A DNA stretch of 45,904 bases from Escherichia phage vB_EcoS_PTXU06: sequence record NC_073064.1, one strand, 5' to 3'. Shown here one piece after another: positions 9,996 to 35,480 of this stretch. Both the position numbers and the translations under genes were made by a program. The notes beneath the pieces are model-generated. The model searched no databases. It was not told where the DNA came from and saw nothing but the letters and a program-made list of their open reading frames with translations. Numbering within the stretch: the stretch's first letter is position 1; each line of letters opens with the position of its first letter.

Positions 9996-10760
9996 TTAGC
10001 GCGGAATACCGCAGATTTCGTTTAACGTCTTCACGTCCAGCGCCACCGCCGTGGACTTCGGCTTATCCGGGTATGGAATAAACTGTTCAACTTCAGGCCA
10101 CGCCTTGATCAGCTTCTTATCGGTATTGTGCATATCAAGCACGCCGGTAACGGTTAGTTTGAACGCGTCATACTTAGCACGCAACTCACGTCGGGCATTG
10201 TCGTTACGGTCCAGGCGCTTGCAGAAATCATGATCCGCCGGGAAATCCGCACGACAGCGCGGCTTATAGATCGGCAGCGCTTTCCCATCCTCGTCCACTT
10301 CGCACACAGAAGCCAGCATTACTTCTTCGAACCCAGGTACAATATCGCCGAGATCGGGAGATAGCTTATTCATGTATTTATATTCCCAGTATCCGCGATG
10401 TACTCGGTATTGTCGTCCGTCACCGCTCAATGACAGTGTGCGCACATTTCCGCCTGCGTTGATTTCGAAAGTGGCGTCGTAAACGCTGCCGATGCCTTTT
10501 GGGCGGTCAGCGTTATAACTATACGTCGCCTTGTTGGTGTATACGCTTACTCCGTACATCTGCGACGGGTCGTCGCCGATTGCTTTAATGCGCGCGAGTA
10601 GCTCGGCGAAAGTGCGAATGCCTTCCGGCATACAGTCCAGCGTAATGGCGTACGCCAGGTCGCGCGAGTCCATCATGATGGATTTGGCTTCGGTCGCGAT
10701 TTCATGGTCGCGCAGGATGTTAGCCAGGATCAGGTTTTTAATGTCTTTTGTCAGTCTCAT
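9996..10760 (-). CDS. hypothetical protein (minus-strand insert in structural block)
   Basis: 254-aa ORF with GAGGA RBS; opposite strand to all flanking structural genes; no recognisable motif. Confidence 0.6.
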   Translation of the reverse strand: MRLTKDIKNLILANILRDHEIATEAKSIMMDSRDLAYAITLDCMPEGIRTFAELLARIKAIGDDPSQMYGVSVYTNKATYSYNADRPKGIGSVYDATFEINAGGNVRTLSLSGDGRQYRVHRGYWEYKYMNKLSPDLGDIVPGFEEVMLASVCEVDEDGKALPIYKPRCRADFPADHDFCKRLDRNDNARRELRAKYDAFKLTVTGVLDMHNTDKKLIKAWPEVEQFIPYPDKPKSTAVALDVKTLNEICGIPR

Positions 10761-27311: not shown

Positions 27312-29135
27312 ATGGCAGCGGGCACACTATCCGTAACGAATAACAGCAAGGCGGTTGTAGGGGTCGGGACAACGTTTACCGCGTTTAACGCTGGCGACTT
27401 CTTAACGCTGGTGGTAGGGCAAGTCCCCTACACCGTAGCAATCGCGTCCGTTGAAAGCGAAACCGCGCTTACGCTGGTGTTACCGTTCGACGGCCCAACG
27501 GCAACCGGCCTTGCGTGGGATGGCGTTAAGCGCGATACCATGTCACTGGCGACGATGGGCGTAACCGTACAGGCACAGAAAGCATTGCGCTTGATGCTTG
27601 CAGATGAAAACAACTGGCGTGCAATCTTCGGCGACGCTGAAGAAATAACCGTGACGTTGCCTAACGGGCAGGTAATGCAGGGTATGTCATGGGGATATCT
27701 GTCGCAGTTGATGAAACAGGTCGACCCAGTTGAGATGCGCAACCTGCAACAGCAAGCCGCCGCATCTGAAGCAGCCGCGCAGGGATACCGGAACGAGGCC
27801 GAAGGCTTCAAGACCGAGACGGCGGGCATTCGCGACGCCACCAATCAGATTAAGGCGGATACGCAGGCGATCCACGACGCCACTAATACCATCAAGACGC
27901 AGACTGACCTGATTAAGACTGATACTCAGGCCATCAAGGACCAGACGAACCAGATCAAGACTGACACCGGCGTTATTCGTGACGAAGCCAATATGGCGAA
28001 GACTGACGCGCAGGCCGCCAGCGCTGCCGCGCAGGGATTTCGCGATCAGGCCGAAGAATGGGCGCAAAGCGTAAACCCCGACAATCTGCTAACCAAATCC
28101 GGCAACCTCGCCGGGCTTGCGGACAAAAGTGCGTCGTGGGCTAACCTTATGCCGTCAGGACCGCTTCGCGTAGGTGCGGACCCCGTAAACACCCTGGACG
28201 CTGCGACTAAAGGGTGGGTGTGGCGCGGTCTTGATGACGTGGGGCTTTGGGGTTTACGCAATAACTACGCTTCAGAACCCGCAGGGGGTGCAGAAGTATA
28301 CGGCGGGCGCTTTGACTCCTCTGTGAACGTCGCAGGGACCGAAAAATACAGAATGTCGATACAGCTTCAGGGGCGTAATAACGTAGACGCCTGGACACGT
28401 TTGGCGACCGCTGACGTCCGCAGCATGGCGAACGCGGCGACGTGGGACTTTAAATATGATGGCAAGATTATTTTCAATAAGGGATTGAGTCCATCGTCCA
28501 CCTCGGCGTCGCCAGGTAATACCTACGTAACCCTTGCGAATACATGGATGGACAGCCAATACTCGGGACACGTCGGCTTTGTTGGAGGCGGGGCGGGGAC
28601 GAGTGGTGGCGGGTGGCGTAACTTTATTTCGTTCGGCGCGCTGATCCACCCGCCCACCGGTAACTCGCACCCCCATGCTATGATTGCGCAGGTCTTTGAT
28701 TATGATTTGGCGTCCGGGACACAGCCTAACGGCGATAGCGTTCGAAACACTACATTCAACCCCGAAGCATACGATATCACCTTCGGCAACAACTTAGGGA
28801 CTGTTAACTATATTTTCGCAAAGTCCCCGGTATCCGATAGGGCGCTGAAGCATGATATCGCCCGGATCGATACTCAAGTTGCGTACGATAACGTTATGAC
28901 TATGGAGTACTCGTCCTTTGTTTATAACTACGACAAAAAAGAGACGGTTAGACGTGGTTTTATCGCGCAGCAGTTGGAAGAGATCGACCCGCAGTATGTC
29001 CGCAAGTACACCAACGCAACCGGTAAAGAGTTTCTGGCATTAGATGAAAACGTCCTACTACTTGACCTAATCGCGACTGTTCAGCATTTGGCGGCGAAGG
29101 TTGAGGCGTTAGAAAGTAAGTTAGCGGAGAAATGA
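27312..29135 (+). CDS. side tail fiber with C-terminal intramolecular chaperone-like domain
   Basis: Start at ATG 27312 with GAGGA RBS; repetitive T/Q/D-rich shaft (IKTDTQAIKDQTNQIKTDTG); C-terminal SDRALKHDI...coiled coil resembles S74-type auto-cleaving chaperone domains. Confidence 0.7.
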   Translation: MAAGTLSVTNNSKAVVGVGTTFTAFNAGDFLTLVVGQVPYTVAIASVESETALTLVLPFDGPTATGLAWDGVKRDTMSLATMGVTVQAQKALRLMLADENNWRAIFGDAEEITVTLPNGQVMQGMSWGYLSQLMKQVDPVEMRNLQQQAAASEAAAQGYRNEAEGFKTETAGIRDATNQIKADTQAIHDATNTIKTQTDLIKTDTQAIKDQTNQIKTDTGVIRDEANMAKTDAQAASAAAQGFRDQAEEWAQSVNPDNLLTKSGNLAGLADKSASWANLMPSGPLRVGADPVNTLDAATKGWVWRGLDDVGLWGLRNNYASEPAGGAEVYGGRFDSSVNVAGTEKYRMSIQLQGRNNVDAWTRLATADVRSMANAATWDFKYDGKIIFNKGLSPSSTSASPGNTYVTLANTWMDSQYSGHVGFVGGGAGTSGGGWRNFISFGALIHPPTGNSHPHAMIAQVFDYDLASGTQPNGDSVRNTTFNPEAYDITFGNNLGTVNYIFAKSPVSDRALKHDIARIDTQVAYDNVMTMEYSSFVYNYDKKETVRRGFIAQQLEEIDPQYVRKYTNATGKEFLALDENVLLLDLIATVQHLAAKVEALESKLAEK

Positions 29136-29139
29136 GAAT

Positions 29140-29164
29140 AAGGGGCCATACGGCCCCTTTTTTA
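29140..29164. terminator. bidirectional rho-independent terminator
   Basis: AAGGGGCC-ATAC-GGCCCCTT hairpin followed by TTTTTT at the switch from plus to minus transcription. Confidence 0.65.
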
Positions 29165-29737
29165 GTTTGAGTTTTCCCAGTCCATTTTGCGCCGCACCAG
29201 CGGGCTTTCAAAGTATTCCTTGCCCTCAACTTCCACCAAAGGCCAGTCGTTCACAATCACGTACGGCTCCGCGATATCCTCAATCACGCCGTGCGCGCTT
29301 TGCGGCCCTAACGACACACCAACCAGGATAACCCCGGCAACTCGACGAGTGAGATACTCGCGAGCGCAACGTGCCTCAACCAGCCCCCTACGGATGCCGC
29401 TGGTGGCCTTAACCTCGTACGCCCAAACGGCATCAATCATATGTTCCCGGAAGTCGGGACCAGACTTTACCTTGCGTTTGCCGACCATGATAATATCGCC
29501 GCGGTCGATAGTGTTAGCGCTAAACAGGCCGGTACGCATTAGCAAACCTTGAGGGATACAGCTACGCCCGCCCGCCTGCCCTTCTAGGTACATGCCCGCA
29601 AACATCTCACCCAGCACACCTACAAGGCGGCTTTGTTTGCACGCGTCAGACTTTAAGCGCCACTGTTCAAACTCTATGCTTGCGATCATTGCTGCGAGGT
29701 GGAATTGTTTACCGGTTATTTCATATTCGCCGTACAT
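29162..29737 (-). CDS. hypothetical protein, possible PD-(D/E)xK-type nuclease
   Basis: 191 aa; GDIIMVGK...IDAVWAYEVKAT resembles a D...ExK nuclease core (weak). Confidence 0.4.
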   Translation of the reverse strand: MYGEYEITGKQFHLAAMIASIEFEQWRLKSDACKQSRLVGVLGEMFAGMYLEGQAGGRSCIPQGLLMRTGLFSANTIDRGDIIMVGKRKVKSGPDFREHMIDAVWAYEVKATSGIRRGLVEARCAREYLTRRVAGVILVGVSLGPQSAHGVIEDIAEPYVIVNDWPLVEVEGKEYFESPLVRRKMDWENSN

Positions 29738-29778
29738 TGTGAATCCCTCATTGATGCGGGCCGAAGCCCGCGATTAAA

Positions 29779-30231
29779 TTATTTAAGTGCGCCAGTCACC
29801 AGTGTTTTTTCCATGTTGCGGAAATCTTCCGGCGTCATGAGGATTTTGGACCCATCTTCGCCGGTGAGCACGACCATAGGCCGGGCGTCTTGATCTGCGG
29901 TGGGGCAACCTTTGAGGCTTTCAAACTGTTCTGCCGTTGTATCGATCTGAATCTCGTCGTGTACGGTCATGTACGACTCGCCCAGCAAGGCCGCATACGC
30001 TACCAGGTCGACGATATTGTCTTCCTGGTGCTTACGGTGCTGGCGCACCAGCTTCAGGCAGATCAAGAAGGTCCATGCTTCTTGCTCGGTCAGGTCGCGA
30101 CCGGTAAGCGCGTTAAACACGGCAGCGATCTGCTTAGCACTTCGTTCTTCTTTCTCGCCGTCATAGCCGTTTTCTTTCCCGCGCTGTTCCATAGTGGTGG
30201 CGGCGTTTTTGCAGTATTCGTATGCTTTCAT
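29779..30231 (-). CDS. hypothetical protein
   Basis: 150-aa ORF downstream of the candidate promoter at 30278-30307. Confidence 0.5.
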   Translation of the reverse strand: MKAYEYCKNAATTMEQRGKENGYDGEKEERSAKQIAAVFNALTGRDLTEQEAWTFLICLKLVRQHRKHQEDNIVDLVAYAALLGESYMTVHDEIQIDTTAEQFESLKGCPTADQDARPMVVLTGEDGSKILMTPEDFRNMEKTLVTGALK

Positions 30232-30277
30232 AGTGTTTTCCTTTTTCGGGGAGGCCGTATTGCCTCCCTGCGCGTTA

Positions 30278-30307
30278 ACTATAGTGCAACCAACCTATTG
30301 GTTGCAA
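30278..30307 (-). promoter_or_regulatory. candidate promoter (-35 TTGCAA, 18-bp spacer, -10 TATAGT) overlapping a palindromic operator-like site
   Basis: Inverted repeat TGCAACCAA-CCTA-TTGGTTGCA at 30285-30306 read directly. Confidence 0.35.
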
Positions 30308-30765
30308 GTAAATTTTGCAACATTTATTGCGTAAATTTTCGGAACCAGATCGCTGCACGCCCGACGAATTGCCGCGATGTTCTTCTCGCAATCTTCAATG
30401 ATGACCAGTTCCGACACGTCCGCATAGCAGACCATTTTGAACACGGCGCACGCCTTAAACTCAGGCGGTGGGGTGTCGTCCAGCATGTGGCGCATAAACA
30501 ACCGACCGACAGGGAAGACCTCCAGTTGCTCGGCGGTAGTCTCCCAGCATTCTCGCTGCCGGTTTGTCAGATACGCGATCTCGAAGCCTTGCTCTTTATA
30601 CATGCTCAACAGCGGCAGCATATCCATGTTAAGGTCTTCGCGTACGTGCGCTTTGTGCCACTTCGCCCAAAATGTTGATTTGGTTTTTATACCTGGAACC
30701 AGGTCGGCGCGTGCATCACTCGAACCATTAATAACGCCATCAAGATCACAAATCAGTAGTTTCAT
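30295..30765 (-). CDS. HAD-superfamily hydrolase, putative 5'(3')-deoxyribonucleotidase-like
   Basis: N-terminal LLICDLDGVI matches the HAD motif I (DxDG) as in phage and eukaryotic 5'-nucleotidases. Confidence 0.5.
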   Translation of the reverse strand: MKLLICDLDGVINGSSDARADLVPGIKTKSTFWAKWHKAHVREDLNMDMLPLLSMYKEQGFEIAYLTNRQRECWETTAEQLEVFPVGRLFMRHMLDDTPPPEFKACAVFKMVCYADVSELVIIEDCEKNIAAIRRACSDLVPKIYAINVAKFTCNQ

Positions 30766-30986
30766 TGTAAGCTCTCAATAAGGGTGTATCGGACGCTGCG
30801 CGCGGAAAACTTGTTACACACAAGATGCCAACGGGCGGTTATGACCAGCCAGCCGGTAAGATCCAGGCCCAGGATATATTCTGGACGTGACACGCGCTTC
30901 ACACGATCGCGGCGCGGGTCGATGTTATAGTCTATTTGCATTCGGACTACTACCGCAGGGTCGCGGTCAACGATTAAGATATTCAA
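30762..30986 (-). CDS. hypothetical protein
   Basis: 74-aa ORF overlapping both neighbours. Confidence 0.4.
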   Translation of the reverse strand: MNILIVDRDPAVVVRMQIDYNIDPRRDRVKRVSRPEYILGLDLTGWLVITARWHLVCNKFSARSVRYTLIESLQ

Positions 30987-31452
30987 GGAGTTCTCCTTCG
31001 CTCATTATTTCAATTTGTGCGCTGCCGATGGGTGGCGCTTCGTCAAAGATTATCAATTGCTGGCACTTGTTATTGCTCGGCCCGACTTCGCCGGTGACGG
31101 CGTGAATGAATCTAATCCGCCAGTCCAGAAGAATTATCAGGTTTGCAGTCTTCCGGGCCAGCTTCGCCCACTTCGTCGACGTGTCCTGATTCAGTAGCAT
31201 GACAGTCCGGCGTCCGTGCGCTGCGCACTCAACCCACGGCAGCGGATCGGAATACGGCGGATTGCACCACTTCCACCCTTTCAACTCTGCCCAGTCCACA
31301 TCAAGCGCGCTGTGCTCTGCCGTGAAGTAACGCGGTAGCAGATGGTTGGCGTCGCTTGCCGCCATGTCATAACGGAATCGGTACTTCCGGCGCAGCGGTT
31401 TAAATAAAGCTGGCGGCGTGCGCCAGCTATCTTTTTGCTCACTCTTCTGCAT
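30967..31452 (-). CDS. DNA N6-adenine methyltransferase (phage Dam-like)
   Basis: 161 aa; N-terminal WRTPP and catalytic NPPYS motif typical of small phage N6A methyltransferases. Confidence 0.75.
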   Translation of the reverse strand: MQKSEQKDSWRTPPALFKPLRRKYRFRYDMAASDANHLLPRYFTAEHSALDVDWAELKGWKWCNPPYSDPLPWVECAAHGRRTVMLLNQDTSTKWAKLARKTANLIILLDWRIRFIHAVTGEVGPSNNKCQQLIIFDEAPPIGSAQIEIMSEGELLEYLNR

Positions 31453-31903
31453 GGTCGGTGTCTATCGCATAAAGTGGAGTCTTACCACCTTTATTGATGA
31501 CGCGCTGCACGCGCTTTGCTTCCTCGACACTAAGCGGGCGCGCGTTCGGGTAGATGCTGCCGTTTGTAGGGTTGCGCCACGCCATGAGCACAAGGTCTTT
31601 CCGGGCGATCGAAGACTGGCGGCTCTTCGGACGCACGTACTCCTCGGCCCGTTTGCAATGCTCGCGCAGACCTTCGGCAGTGATGCGGTTTAATGCAACG
31701 CTGGTTGTGTATCCGGTGCGCTGCATAATACCCATCAACTCATACAGCAGTTCGAAGCGCTCCTCTAATTCCTTGCGCGCCTTCTTCTCGCCTACATATA
31801 GCGCATGGTTGGTGTCCGCCACCGCGTTCGCACGTTCGGCCTGATCGCGGGCTTCTAGGCATTGCGCGGCCCAGTATGCTTTTTCTTCTTGTAAAATTTT
31901 CAT
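31439..31903 (-). CDS. hypothetical protein
   Basis: Start at the internal ATG with GGAG RBS (track start 31963 lies inside a terminator hairpin); coiled-coil-like. Confidence 0.5.
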   Translation of the reverse strand: MKILQEEKAYWAAQCLEARDQAERANAVADTNHALYVGEKKARKELEERFELLYELMGIMQRTGYTTSVALNRITAEGLREHCKRAEEYVRPKSRQSSIARKDLVLMAWRNPTNGSIYPNARPLSVEEAKRVQRVINKGGKTPLYAIDTDHAEE

Positions 31904-31922
31904 CGTGTCGACTCCAGGTATT

Positions 31923-31949
31923 AAAAAAGGGCGTCCAAACCGGACACCC
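31923..31949 (-). terminator. rho-independent terminator (minus strand)
   Basis: On the minus strand GGGTGTCC-GGTTT-GGACGCCC followed by TTTTTT. Confidence 0.55.
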
Positions 31950-31951
31950 TC

Positions 31952-31980
31952 AATATAATGCAACCAATATGATTATGCAA
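31952..31980 (-). promoter_or_regulatory. candidate promoter (-35 TTGCAT, 17-bp spacer, -10 TATATT) built on two ATGCAACCAAT copies
   Basis: Motif copies at 31958-31968 and 31975-31985; hexamers read on the minus strand. Confidence 0.35.
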
Positions 31981-31985
31981 CCAAT

Positions 31986-32303
31986 TTACGCATAAAAATT
32001 CGGGTCGCGCGCGACGTCTACCAGATACAGGTTGCTGATTCGGTTGCCGTAGTGGCCTGGTGTTCGCTGGCGGCACACAACGGCGTAGCCTGGAGGAATT
32101 GTATTGCCGGTCGCGATAATCCACGCCACGCGTGCGCCCGATAGAGTTTTGCCGTTGCATTCGATGCGCGTGCCGCCATCGGCGGTATTGAGGTTGCCAA
32201 TTTTGCAGCCGGTGGACTTCAGACGAATGACGCCGGTTTTGCTGTCGTAGGAGAATAACTGGTTAGTCATTGCAACCGAAAAATCGATGGCTTCGAATGT
32301 CAT
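31986..32303 (-). CDS. HNH_3-like (homing-endonuclease-like) protein, possibly degenerate
   Basis: 105 aa; ARVAWIIATG and GNRISNLYLV resemble HNH_3 proteins but the canonical D-H is replaced (VCRQ); ATGA-coupled to the upstream methyltransferase-like gene. Confidence 0.4.
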   Translation of the reverse strand: MTFEAIDFSVAMTNQLFSYDSKTGVIRLKSTGCKIGNLNTADGGTRIECNGKTLSGARVAWIIATGNTIPPGYAVVCRQRTPGHYGNRISNLYLVDVARDPNFYA

Positions 32304-32995
32304 TTTAAATTTTCCTCGTTAACCGCTATCGCGAAGCCGCGCGGAGTGAGCGACCTGATTAATTTGGTGCGGGCAGATTTGCCTCCGAGGCGACTATACT
32401 GCTTCGAGTACCCTTTTTCAACGAATACAGGCTTTTTCTCTGGCATACGGAAGCCGTTGCCGGTCCATAAGCAGGTCAGCTTCGGATATGAATCACGGGC
32501 GTTGATGTATTCAGGGAATAGCGGGTGCACGTCATCCTCCGGCAAATAGCCGCCATACTCCCACGGGTCAAACGAGTGGTCAGGCTTACGCCATTGAGTG
32601 GAGAGCACGCTGCGCGGGTTCTCAATCAGATACGGCACTTCAAAGAAATCACCCAGGTAAGCGGCGATCTTCGCGGTGCGTACCGCCTTAAGCTGGAAGG
32701 CAGGGTCGCTGGCGCGTTTGCGCGGGAAAGCTGGCGCACCGCTAACCGCCAGATCCGTACACGGCGGGAATGCATAAATGATGTCCGGCGTGCCGAAATC
32801 ACCATTCATCGCACGGTCCACGAAGTCCAGATCGATAAACTCATTGCGATACCGGATTCCGCGACCATAAATCCGGTAGTCAAGGTAAGACCCGTGATCG
32901 GCTTCGGAGTAGTTGAAGCAATAACACTTATGCCCCATCTCGGCAGCACGCTCAATCATCAAGCCGCTGCCGTCGAACAATGACCAGATTATCAT
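32300..32995 (-). CDS. putative DNA (cytosine-5)-methyltransferase-like protein, copy 1
   Basis: 231 aa; LFDGSG (motif I-like), FPPC (motif IV-like catalytic Cys), LIENP (motif VI-like); unusually short for a C5 methyltransferase. Confidence 0.5.
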   Translation of the reverse strand: MIIWSLFDGSGLMIERAAEMGHKCYCFNYSEADHGSYLDYRIYGRGIRYRNEFIDLDFVDRAMNGDFGTPDIIYAFPPCTDLAVSGAPAFPRKRASDPAFQLKAVRTAKIAAYLGDFFEVPYLIENPRSVLSTQWRKPDHSFDPWEYGGYLPEDDVHPLFPEYINARDSYPKLTCLWTGNGFRMPEKKPVFVEKGYSKQYSRLGGKSARTKLIRSLTPRGFAIAVNEENLK

Positions 32996-33168
32996 TTGCG
33001 CGCCTTTTTAGCTTTCATGTATTCCATTAAATCATCCTGAATATCGCGCTTACTGTCGCGACGCTCGGCGACCAGTTCGTCCAGCGTCCCGCGAGCCTGG
33101 ATAATGTAGACGAATACGGGTCGAGGGTGTCCTGCTTGCATCTGGCGAACCGGCCCGATACGTTCAAC
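32992..33168 (-). pseudogene. duplicated 3' fragment of the helicase gene (last ~58 codons)
   Basis: Identical to 34056-34232; the 90-aa track ORF here is a junction chimera of the helicase C-terminus with out-of-frame sequence. Confidence 0.6.
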
Positions 33169-33367
33169 TGCCGGTCGCGATAATCCACGCCACGCGTGCG
33201 CCCGATAGAGTTTTGCCGTTGCATTCGATGCGCGTGCCGCCATCGGCGGTATTGAGGTTGCCAATTTTGCAGCCGGTGGACTTCAGACGAATGACGCCGG
33301 TTTTGCTGTCGTAGGAGAATAACTGGTTAGTCATTGCAACCGAAAAATCGATGGCTTCGAATGTCAT
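33169..33367 (-). pseudogene. truncated 5' copy of the HNH-like gene
   Basis: First ~64 codons identical to 31986-32303, then broken at the duplication junction. Confidence 0.55.
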
Positions 33368-34059
33368 TTTAAATTTTCCTCGTTAACCGCTATCGCGAAG
33401 CCGCGCGGAGTGAGCGACCTGATTAATTTGGTGCGGGCAGATTTGCCTCCGAGGCGACTATACTGCTTCGAGTACCCTTTTTCAACGAATACAGGCTTTT
33501 TCTCTGGCATACGGAAGCCGTTGCCGGTCCATAAGCAGGTCAGCTTCGGATATGAATCACGGGCGTTGATGTATTCAGGGAATAGCGGGTGCACGTCATC
33601 CTCCGGCAAATAGCCGCCATACTCCCACGGGTCAAACGAGTGGTCAGGCTTACGCCATTGAGTGGAGAGCACGCTGCGCGGGTTCTCAATCAGATACGGC
33701 ACTTCAAAGAAATCACCCAGGTAAGCGGCGATCTTCGCGGTGCGTACCGCCTTAAGCTGGAAGGCAGGGTCGCTGGCGCGTTTGCGCGGGAAAGCTGGCG
33801 CACCGCTAACCGCCAGATCCGTACACGGCGGGAATGCATAAATGATGTCCGGCGTGCCGAAATCACCATTCATCGCACGGTCCACGAAGTCCAGATCGAT
33901 AAACTCATTGCGATACCGGATTCCGCGACCATAAATCCGGTAGTCAAGGTAAGACCCGTGATCGGCTTCGGAGTAGTTGAAGCAATAACACTTATGCCCC
34001 ATCTCGGCAGCACGCTCAATCATCAAGCCGCTGCCGTCGAACAATGACCAGATTATCAT
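33364..34059 (-). CDS. putative DNA (cytosine-5)-methyltransferase-like protein, copy 2
   Basis: Translation identical to copy 1. Confidence 0.5.
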   Translation of the reverse strand: MIIWSLFDGSGLMIERAAEMGHKCYCFNYSEADHGSYLDYRIYGRGIRYRNEFIDLDFVDRAMNGDFGTPDIIYAFPPCTDLAVSGAPAFPRKRASDPAFQLKAVRTAKIAAYLGDFFEVPYLIENPRSVLSTQWRKPDHSFDPWEYGGYLPEDDVHPLFPEYINARDSYPKLTCLWTGNGFRMPEKKPVFVEKGYSKQYSRLGGKSARTKLIRSLTPRGFAIAVNEENLK

Positions 34060-35480
34060 TTGCGCGCCTTTTTAGCTTTCATGTATTCCATTAAATCATC
34101 CTGAATATCGCGCTTACTGTCGCGACGCTCGGCGACCAGTTCGTCCAGCGTCCCGCGAGCCTGGATAATGTAGACGAATACGGGTCGAGGGTGTCCTGCT
34201 TGCATCTGGCGAACCGGCCCGATACGTTCAACGATCTGCGAAAAGTGCTCAAAGTTCCAGGTATCGGAGAAGATTGCCAGGTGATGACCGCCGTCCTGCA
34301 AGTTAAGGCCGTGGCCCGCCGATGCCGGGTGTGCAAACATGATGGGGATCTCGCCTCTGTTCCACGCCTCCATATCCTTATTGCCCTGCTTACCTTTACC
34401 CAACGCAACGCCGTGCGGAAATTTCTTCTTAAGACGTGCCAGGTCATGCTTATACTGATACGCAACGAGCAACGGCGCGCCGTTCAACTCCTCCACGATA
34501 CTTTCCAGCGCGTCCAGCTTCGCGTCGTGAATCTTCACCCACTCGTCGGTCCGTTCGCCGTCTTCGTCGACTTTATACACAGCCCCCGAAGCAAGCTGAA
34601 GGCACTTAATAGTCTTCGATGCAGCGTTCGCCGCCTCCACAGTTCCGCTTTCCAGTTCCGCAAATAACTCCGCTTCGAACTGGTCATAAATCTTGCGGGC
34701 TTTCTTCGGCAGGTCCACAACAACCGGCGTATATATTGGCTTGTCGCATCCGAAGTATTCCGCCGCGTCAACGGTTAGCGACACGTCGGACAGGCGTTGT
34801 TGGATCTCTTTCTCGGAGTTCTTAAGCGGGGCGTGCTGCATAGAGAAGCTGCCAGGCTTAACAGGCTTGCTAATGAACCAGCGATCGGTAAATGCCTTAT
34901 AGCTACTGCCGAGGCGTTCGCCACCGTCGACAAACCACGTTTGCCCCCACAGATCTTTCAAGCCATTTGGCGCTGGTGTGCCGGTAAGGTTAATCCAGCG
35001 CTTGACGTGCTTATGTGCGATCGCCGCCAGTGCGCGTGCGCGCTTACTACCCTGCTTACTTCGGTAGCCTTTCAGCTTAGTGGATTCATCGGCAACAACC
35101 ACCGTAAAGGGCCACGCATCGCCGTAATAGTCGACCAGCCACTCAACCACATCGTAGTTAACACAAACCACGTTAGCGTCGCTCTCAAGCGCGGCAATAC
35201 GGTCCTTCTCCGGTCCGGTGCCGTCTACGACCAGCAGGGATGAGAACCGCCATTTCTCCTGTTCCGGGGGCCATGTACCCGACGCAACACGCAGCGGGGC
35301 CAGCACCAGTACGCGGTCCTCATGATGGGACAGGATGCCAGTCTGGAACATTTTGTTCAGCGCCCACATTGTCGCGCCGGTTTTACCCGACCCCATTGTC
35401 GCCCAGATATTGCATCGCTTATGCTTGAGGATGAACGCGGTAATCAACTTCTGATATTCGCGGCGTCGGAATCGTGCCAT
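34056..35480 (-). CDS. SNF2/DEAD-like helicase
   Basis: Walker A GSGKTG, DExx box VVADEST, C-terminal helicase motif QIVERIGPVRQ; start taken at ATG 35480 (MARFRRR); the track ORF extends to a GTG at 35570 overlapping the upstream gene. Confidence 0.8.
   Translation of the reverse strand: MARFRRREYQKLITAFILKHKRCNIWATMGSGKTGATMWALNKMFQTGILSHHEDRVLVLAPLRVASGTWPPEQEKWRFSSLLVVDGTGPEKDRIAALESDANVVCVNYDVVEWLVDYYGDAWPFTVVVADESTKLKGYRSKQGSKRARALAAIAHKHVKRWINLTGTPAPNGLKDLWGQTWFVDGGERLGSSYKAFTDRWFISKPVKPGSFSMQHAPLKNSEKEIQQRLSDVSLTVDAAEYFGCDKPIYTPVVVDLPKKARKIYDQFEAELFAELESGTVEAANAASKTIKCLQLASGAVYKVDEDGERTDEWVKIHDAKLDALESIVEELNGAPLLVAYQYKHDLARLKKKFPHGVALGKGKQGNKDMEAWNRGEIPIMFAHPASAGHGLNLQDGGHHLAIFSDTWNFEHFSQIVERIGPVRQMQAGHPRPVFVYIIQARGTLDELVAERRDSKRDIQDDLMEYMKAKKARK

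Follow-up and report, generated by a model that had tools for sequence, protein, structure and literature searches.

An accessory gene block in a Dhillonvirus predicted to encode a PD-(D/E)xK-fold nuclease, a HAD-superfamily phosphatase, a DUF6378 protein and the Avs2 trigger Ksap1

The 45,904-nucleotide stretch of Escherichia phage vB_EcoS_PTXU06 analyzed here (NC_073064.1; hereafter, the window) contains, from 29162 to 30986, four minus-strand ORFs that fill this span exactly and that likely represent the promoter-distal end of a leftward Dhillonvirus DNA-metabolism operon, with four accessory genes carried on one shared transcript. Taken as a whole, the explanation that we favor, and consider probable, is that this operon end encodes a nuclease (ORF A), a DUF6378 protein (ORF B), a HAD phosphomonoesterase (ORF C), and Ksap1 (ORF D). 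These are accessory genes that are worth annotating but mostly ordinary, and the new point is confined to the small PD-(D/E)xK family to which ORF A belongs. The features of the region are as follows.

29140 to 29159, no strand assigned: GC-rich hairpin, probable terminator for both transcription units (terminator-like scan).
29162 to 29737, minus strand: ORF A, 191 aa, predicted PD-(D/E)xK-fold nuclease, last gene of the leftward operon.
29779 to 30231, minus strand: ORF B, 150 aa, DUF6378 protein.
30295 to 30765, minus strand: ORF C, 156 aa, predicted HAD-superfamily phosphomonoesterase.
30762 to 30986, minus strand: ORF D, 74 aa, TTG start, Ksap1.
30967 to 31452, minus strand: Dam-type N6-adenine DNA methyltransferase, directly upstream in the operon (Pfam PF05869, 2e-35).

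The window is a near-complete genome of a Dhillonvirus (HK578-like Escherichia coli siphophage); it shares 97% identity with Escherichia phage Zar3M, and 157 phage records match it, the majority of them named as Escherichia or Dhillonvirus phages. A 2.5-kb region here is covered to at least 80% by 149 phage records at a DNA identity of 80 to 97%. The four ORFs are confirmed as real genes rather than chance ORFs by end-to-end PHROG family matches (E-values of 6e-43 to 3e-117), by their conservation in roughly 150 sequenced relatives, by their annotation as coding sequences in relatives, by the Shine-Dalgarno-like sequences that precede them, and by overlapping stops and starts: the 156-aa and 74-aa genes share an ATGA, and the 3' end of the Dam gene overlaps the start of the 74-aa gene by 20 nt. 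The hairpin lies between two convergent genes, a tail-fiber gene ending at 29135 and ORF A ending at 29162, and was detected on both strands, with a good T-run only on the plus strand. The preliminary description of this DNA placed the genes at the start of the minus-strand block, which is accurate in plus-strand coordinates, but by transcription they form the 3' end of the leftward operon.

ORF A belongs to phrog_10558, a small family found only in phages. Across 19 aligned sequences with identity down to 24%, residues E44, D81, E108, and K110 are invariant. The structure model is confident and has a restriction-endonuclease-like alpha/beta core, in which E44 lies on the first long helix (residues 34 to 54), D81 opens a strand (82 to 92), and E108-x-K110 lies on a second strand (97 to 112). 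From this order of secondary-structure elements we infer that D81 would sit opposite E108 in a beta-hairpin and that the four catalytic-type residues would cluster in space. ORF A thus has a PD-(D/E)xK fold, the E...D...ExK core of which is conserved, and structural similarity to such folds, on which the preliminary description had staked its reading of this gene, was indeed found. That description spoke of a weak D...EVK nuclease-like core. E108-V-K110 is present with both D81 and D102 upstream, and the fold and this motif hold; an identification of the aspartate with D102 does not, since D102 is not conserved and D81 is the residue paired with ExK throughout the family. Judging from these residues and the model, ORF A would most likely be an active, Mg2+-dependent PD-(D/E)xK DNA endonuclease, and it may degrade or process DNA that is not mature phage DNA, for instance host DNA or by-products of replication. 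Protein identity of 91 to 100% among the roughly 150 Dhillonviruses indicates strong purifying selection on this gene. One GenBank record labels it a restriction endonuclease, while most of the Dhillonvirus records listed call it a hypothetical protein, and our results support replacing the latter with "PD-(D/E)xK family nuclease." Annotations in phage relatives already include an endonuclease VII and another endonuclease or Holliday-junction resolvase.

The DLDGVI sequence that was previously taken as HAD motif I occupies residues 7 to 12 of ORF C, and this assignment is borne out by profile matches and by a full complement of HAD motifs: D7-x-D9-x-V (motif I), T67 with R69 (motif II), K104 (motif III), and E124-D125 (motif IV). 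In an alignment of 13 homologues, D7-L-D9-G-V11, K104, and D125 are invariant, position 67 is always Thr or Ser, and position 124 is Glu or Asp. The match to Pfam PF03767 (Acid_phosphat_B; 4e-5, 23.6 bits) falls under the gathering threshold of 27 bits, but a homologue in another locus that is 37% identical (hhalign probability of 99.6%) just exceeds it at 27.4 bits, and precomputed PF03767 matches exist for 5 of 16 relatives. A PDB profile search returned Pnkp1 (4xrp, E = 0.0019) and a class C acid phosphatase (2i33, E = 0.0055). Against the e(P4) 5'-nucleotidase model TIGR01533, ORF C scored 14 bits (E = 0.023, cutoff of 216), as expected of a distant relative rather than a member. By these profiles ORF C is predicted to be a HAD-superfamily phosphatase whose nearest relatives are the class B/C acid phosphatases and the PNKP phosphatase domains, and it would act through an aspartyl-phosphate intermediate on D7.

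Both of these neighboring families bear on the substrate. The possibility that ORF C is a polynucleotide 3'-phosphatase that heals DNA or RNA ends cut by host nucleases, in the manner of T4 Pnkp or Pnkp1, rather than a nucleotidase, draws on the label "polynucleotide kinase" attached to its PHROG family (phrog_415, 7e-36) and repeated in several GenBank records, on the rank of Pnkp1 as the top PDB profile match, and on a weak match to Pfam HAD_PNKP (0.15). We nevertheless regard it as somewhat unlikely. The HAD domain fills all 156 aa of ORF C and leaves no P-loop kinase domain, and none of the flanking ORFs matched a kinase family; nor was a credible ligase gene found nearby, the neighboring "DNA ligase" being a helical protein of 154 aa with a match to anti-Tmn. 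No T4 Pnkp structure in the PDB was matched at E ≤ 1, and the alignment to Pnkp1 covers motif I and motif II separately and leaves the cap insert unaligned, whereas the alignment to the class C acid phosphatase 2i33 runs ungapped from motif I through a conserved W-x-x-W helical insert, corresponding to the cap region, to motif III. Small substrates are usual for capped HAD enzymes. Because ORF C has a conserved insert rich in Trp and His behind motif I, and this insert aligns with the class C cap region, a small nucleotide (NMP or dNMP, 5' or 3') appears a likelier substrate than a polynucleotide 3'-phosphate end. The earlier term "5'-nucleotidase-like" is therefore apt insofar as the e(P4)/class C acid phosphatase nucleotidases are among the nearest families, but nucleotidase activity is one of at least two substrate options, and the annotation "HAD family phosphatase" is safer than "polynucleotide kinase."

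A functional partnership between the two predicted enzymes, in which ORF A fragments host DNA and ORF C dephosphorylates the resulting dNMPs in the manner of A1 and the 5'-deoxynucleotidase Dmp of phage T5, is a further reading of the locus, which we think unlikely. Homologues of ORF A and of the HAD protein are found together in Dhillonviruses, and so they are in 55%-identical relatives as well as in another phage lineage of 42 kb. HAD motif I (DLDGT) is shared by T5 Dmp, which is encoded close to A1, annotated in the T5 record with a role in degrading host DNA. However, a profile comparison of Dmp with ORF C gave no significant similarity past motif I (hhalign probability of 2%), and we rejected Dmp as a homologue of ORF C on this ground. 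Webervirus-like and T1-like phages carry ORF A homologues with no annotated HAD gene nearby, phage GeorgBuechner retains ORF A although its HAD gene is mostly gone, and no report that Dhillonviruses degrade host DNA was found. GeorgBuechner is a viable natural isolate and deletion of Ksap1 is likewise tolerated, which indicates that these two genes are not essential in the laboratory.

ORF D was one of "two unknowns" in the preliminary description, and neither of them proved wholly anonymous. It matches phrog_10685 (6e-43) and is 84% identical to SECphi18 gp51 (YP_010844212) over 74 of 74 residues with no gaps. In SECphi18, Ksap1 (KpAvs2-stimulating protein 1) is a 74-aa gene located between methyltransferase and phosphatase genes, and its product triggers Klebsiella pneumoniae Avs2 by binding to it directly; natural Ksap1 variants can escape from this (PMC11564622, Nat Commun 2024). 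With full-length homology and the same Dam/phosphatase locus, we assign ORF D as the Ksap1 of this phage on sequence grounds. The gene family is unusually divergent, at 52 to 99% identity across the genus compared with 91 to 100% for ORF A. ORF D carries K30, L39, L47, T50, and F60, all of which are escape or contact sites in the published protein (PMC11564622), and recognition by KpAvs2 is predicted from the presence of these residues. By analogy, the surface of this variant would be what the Klebsiella Avs2 binds, starting abortive infection, and Klebsiella-type Avs2 is predicted to sense the phage as a whole, a point that bears on host-range prediction and on engineering for therapy. We also considered whether the protein could be a degenerate HAD or receiver half-domain, as its N terminus (MNILIVDRDP) mimics that of ORF C (MKLLICDLDG), and rejected this because the Ksap1 family does not conserve D7 and D9.

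The second of the former unknowns, ORF B, is a DUF6378 protein (Pfam PF19905; 39.1 bits with a cutoff of 27.1, E = 9e-10), and 15 of its 17 aligned relatives match the same family. Its layout comprises an N-terminal DUF6378 helical domain (residues ~15 to 85), a linker whose length varies greatly, and, at the C terminus, a short conserved segment, with close relatives ranging from 130 to 199 aa. It matches phrog_9871 as well as phrog_474 and phrog_1167, both of which are labeled "phosphofructokinase." Profile searches of the PDB recovered no relative, relaxed Pfam scans returned DUF6378 alone, and the AF2 model is poor (pLDDT of 53). The SECphi18 counterpart is labeled "Nucleotide modification associated protein," and with this label in mind a link to Nmad1/DUF1599 was suspected, although these searches did not show one. 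DUF6378 proteins such as this one turn up repeatedly in phage replication modules.

In more distant phages, ORF A, the HAD protein, a DUF6378 protein, and an adenine methyltransferase are again found together, and in an unrelated Vibrio phage a HAD gene is also close to a DUF6378 gene, but this recurring neighborhood may reflect inherited synteny of related siphophages rather than functional coupling. The Dam-like and C5-methyltransferase-like neighbors noted previously are both supported, the first by Pfam (2e-35) and the second by membership of the neighboring protein in phrog_757, labeled "DNA methyltransferase." Together with the HAD and nuclease genes they fit the earlier view of a nucleotide-metabolism or DNA-modification region. 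That view does not extend to the block in its entirety, since Ksap1 is present and the 154-aa helical protein encoded directly upstream, annotated as a DNA ligase, is a probable anti-Tmn homologue; Ksap1 (PMC11564622) and anti-Tmn are both experimentally defined host-immunity genes.

The run of genes from the anti-Tmn homologue through Dam, Ksap1, HAD, and DUF6378 to ORF A could accordingly be pictured as a conserved host-immunity island, in which ORF A and the HAD protein are counter-defense enzymes or triggers rather than housekeeping functions. In one study, mutation of an unnamed Dhillonvirus protein is reported to allow phage98 to escape Retron-Eco7 (PMC12640716), and on this picture ORF A could be that protein. 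A PADLOC scan for defense and anti-defense genes gave no meaningful match, and publications on ApeA, Retron-Eco2, Borvo, and Dazbog do not involve the genes of the block. We consider the island proposal quite unlikely; were it true, ORF A and the HAD protein could, for example, destroy DNA- or nucleotide-based immune components. As Ksap1 and the probable anti-Tmn homologue lie within 1.2 kb of both predicted enzymes, these enzymes are reasonable candidates for deletion and defense screens.

Two other accounts of ORF A are very unlikely. The E...D...ExK arrangement, together with a similar length, resembles that of T4 endonuclease IV (DenB), a dC-specific single-stranded DNA endonuclease whose conserved residues fall in the same order (E62...D89...E102-V-K104), and a protein of Escherichia phage OLB35 annotated as "DNA endonuclease IV" was a marginal Foldseek match among viral models (E = 0.083, probability of 0.91). 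Such an order is common to the entire PD-(D/E)xK superfamily rather than specific to DenB, however, and hhalign, in which the sole aligned segment was the helix bearing the conserved Glu, gave nonsignificant values with T4 DenB alone (1.8%) and with a nine-sequence DenB alignment (0.9%). Profile homology was thus not found with T4 DenB and eight homologues, and we treat DenB as a loose analogue. That ORF A is instead a DNA-binding or structural protein that has the fold without nuclease activity, or a homing endonuclease, is hard to credit given that the invariance of four catalytic-type residues down to 24% identity argues that the chemistry is retained, and that the gene occupies a single fixed site in roughly 150 genomes at 91 to 100% identity, whereas homing endonucleases are distributed patchily.

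Our preferred reading of ORF A as a predicted nuclease places it among a set of structurally related enzymes that includes I-Ssp6803I (2ost), the archaeal Hjc resolvases (2wcw and 1gef), and NhoI (8q5n), with which it shares just 9 to 18% sequence identity and for which no relationship at the HMM level was found. It differs from minimal PD-(D/E)xK nucleases in having additional N-terminal (residues 1 to 30) and C-terminal (residues ~157 to 191) elements and an unusually long D81-E108 hairpin, which is shorter in distant members of phrog_10558, and its fixed gene position indicates that, unlike the homing endonuclease I-Ssp6803I, it is not mobile. ORF C resembles HAD subfamily IIIB in its DxDx(T/V) nucleophile motif and its Ser/Thr, Lys, and acidic-pair motifs, but at 156 aa it is far shorter than the class B/C enzymes of that subfamily (~230 to 270 aa), and in contrast to the HAD-IIIB acid phosphatases it begins at motif I with no obvious hydrophobic signal or lipoprotein N terminus, suggesting that it is probably cytoplasmic. 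It is also akin to the PNKP phosphatase domains, which are likewise small members of the HAD superfamily with matching motifs I and II, and to T5 Dmp, which is similarly a phage-encoded phosphatase with a DLDG(T/V) motif I but is 244 aa in length and expressed pre-early. The closest parallel is that between ORF D and the Ksap1 of SECphi18, which are equal in length and occupy the same site between Dam and HAD phosphatase genes, and which differ at 12 positions, several of which fall within the last third of the protein, toward the C terminus.

A megablast search with positions 29000-31500 matched 157 phage records, almost all of them Escherichia or Shigella Dhillonvirus (HK578-like siphophages), with vB_EcoS_Zar3M giving the best match (97.3% identity, same coordinates). 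On the strength of these matches, the 45,904-bp window is, by sequence comparison, essentially an entire Dhillonvirus genome. The stretch at 29162-30986 holds exactly four ORFs, each with a full-length PHROG family match (E-values 6e-43 to 3e-117) and a CDS annotation in relatives.

29140-29159: GC-rich hairpin between ORF A and the convergent tail-fibre gene
29162-29737, minus strand: ORF A, 191 aa
29779-30231, minus strand: ORF B, 150 aa
30295-30765, minus strand: ORF C, 156 aa
30762-30986, minus strand: ORF D, 74 aa, TTG start

Shine-Dalgarno-like sequences precede the cluster genes on the minus strand, ORF D overlaps ORF C by ATGA, and the upstream N6-adenine methyltransferase gene (Dam) overlaps ORF D by 20 nt, an arrangement that indicates a single operon. 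The hairpin at 29140-29159 places the cluster at the end of the leftward block in the direction of transcription, not at its start, where the preliminary description had put it. GC-rich hairpins without U-tracts also lie on the minus strand in both intergenic gaps, B/A (29745-29775, GCGGGCttcgGCCCGC) and C/B (30245-30290, GGGAGGCaatacGGCCTCCCC), and may be RNA-stability or processing elements.

Neither single-sequence nor profile searches gave ORF A a match in the PDB, Pfam, NCBIfam, or PADLOC. Its family is very small: 5.8 billion proteins yielded 6 clusters, and an exhaustive profile search of 1.84 billion yielded 15 representatives. Residues invariant across 19 aligned sequences (down to 24% identity) include G40, E44, G64, R68, D81, E108, and K110, while D102 varies. 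AlphaFold2, given this alignment, returned a confident model (pLDDT 91.6, pTM 0.86) with E44 on helix 34-54, D81 just before strand 82-92, and E108 and K110 on the antiparallel strand 97-112. The model and the invariant E44, D81, E108, and K110 bear out the PD-(D/E)xK fold guessed for this protein from sequence motifs, all of which were found as quoted. We conclude that ORF A represents a putative new small family inside the PD-(D/E)xK superfamily, and it is very likely catalytically competent. Foldseek searches gave at most a marginal match in the PDB (HincII, E 0.034) and, among viral models, numerous uncharacterised proteins from phages (best E 8e-15) together with a weak match to a protein annotated DNA endonuclease IV (E 0.083). 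DenB of T4 is also annotated as DNA endonuclease IV, and an alignment of nine DenB sequences has the same E...D...EVK order as ORF A; comparison by hhalign, including with this alignment, was not significant, and we rejected ORF A as a DenB relative.

About 150 Dhillonviruses carry ORF A at 91-100% identity, and ∼30%-identical homologues occur in Klebsiella Webervirus-like phages and a T1-like coliphage. The gene closes the replication/methylase module in all contexts examined, with an N6-adenine methyltransferase (Dam or MT-A70) encoded a few genes before it. These phage groups are related to one another (BASEL paper), so inherited synteny accounts for this arrangement no less well than functional coupling.

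The HAD fold proposed for the 156-aa ORF C, in which the quoted motif is likewise present, is supported by profile matches and by conservation in 13 homologues of all four HAD motifs (D7-x-D9-x-V, T/S67, K104, and (E/D)124-D125). Some matches make a PNKP-like 3'-phosphatase a serious rival identification: phrog_415, "polynucleotide kinase" (7e-36), and, in a PDB profile search, Pnkp1 (4xrp, 0.0019). The same search returned 2i33, a class C acid phosphatase from Bacillus (0.0055), whose alignment runs without gaps from motif I to K104 and takes in a conserved W33-x-x-W36-H-K-x-H insert. Pfam Acid_phosphat_B was matched below its cut-off (4e-5), and NCBIfam matches were weak (e(P4) 5'-nucleotidase, HAD-IIIA). 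Another phage, of 42 kb, encodes homologues of both ORF A and ORF C; its ORF C homologue clears the Pfam threshold (27.4 versus 27 bits) and aligns to ORF C with an hhalign probability of 99.6%. We infer that ORF C is a capped HAD enzyme whose substrate would be a small phosphomonoester and, most likely, a nucleotide. Motif I is all that ORF C shares with Dmp of T5, the classical dNMP phosphatase of phages. The ORF C gene is dispensable: in GeorgBuechner (Bas16) only its last third is left.

ORF B matches Pfam DUF6378 above the cut-off (9e-10). Its close relatives span 130-199 aa, a spread due to a variable linker that connects the helical N-terminal domain to a short C-terminal segment, both conserved. 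The linker (residues about 95-118) varies greatly in length among relatives otherwise 70-97% identical, and the version found in the window and in Zar3M is among the shorter ones, with 23 residues fewer than that of SECphi18. The structure model is unreliable (pLDDT 53). DUF6378 proteins occur in 358 phage records; in three contexts inspected the gene adjoins one for DNA polymerase, helicase, or dCTP deaminase, and in one Vibrio phage a HAD homologue is encoded three genes away. The PHROG label "phosphofructokinase" found no support in this analysis.

Three further genes of the window are listed below.

31439-31963, minus strand: probable anti-Tmn homologue, probable true start ATG giving 154 aa (about 31439-31903)
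9996-10760, minus strand: Nmad5 protein gene (Pfam PF18757, 2e-56), lone minus-strand gene in the structural module
32300-32995, minus strand: methyltransferase-like ORF, 231 aa, called "C5 cytosine methyltransferase" in relatives

The first, just upstream of Dam, is 86% identical (31439-31900) to CDS0035 of SM_S22. Going by the numbering and the structure given in Commun Biol 2025, CDS0035 appears to be ORF35, the anti-Tmn protein. PHROGs and GenBank label the gene upstream of Dam "DNA ligase," almost certainly wrongly; its 154-aa product is helical, with a small beta-sheet. The Nmad5 protein is 90% identical to that of SM_S22, where one K-to-E substitution enables Dhillonviruses to evade Tmn, and the matching lysine sits in the conserved C-terminal part. 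The 231-aa putative methyltransferase matches phrog_757 only, with no Pfam match at E ≤ 1. It lies in a perfect 1,064-bp tandem duplication (32105-33168 identical to 33169-34232) that yields an identical second copy (33364-34059) and a truncated second HNH-like ORF; the gene is annotated once in other Dhillonvirus records inspected, and the duplication may be real or an assembly artefact. In a Dhillonvirus, "phage98," mutations that allow escape from Retron-Eco7 fall in a gene given neither name nor function (PMC12640716).

The preliminary description labeled the block a nucleotide-metabolism or DNA-modification region, which suits two of its products but not ORF D, a protein of immunological significance. 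The block comprises two probable nucleic-acid or nucleotide enzymes and at least one protein of known immunological significance; it holds nothing categorically new, and the ORF A nuclease family is its sole unexplored element. ORF D corresponds to Ksap1, an activator of Klebsiella pneumoniae Avs2 that binds this sensor's C-terminal domain (Nat Commun 2024, PMC11564622). Ksap1 is at least 90% identical in just 6 of 156 records, versus about 150 records for ORF A and 138 for ORF C, and this much greater divergence across the genus than in neighbouring genes fits diversifying pressure from immune recognition. Natural escape variants are documented, and phages tolerate large ksap1 deletions (PMC11564622). 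SECphi18 gp51, at the position described for Ksap1 in that study, is 84% identical to ORF D without gaps, and ORF D carries all of K30, L39, L47, T50, and F60, the named escape or contact sites of Ksap1 (PMC11564622).
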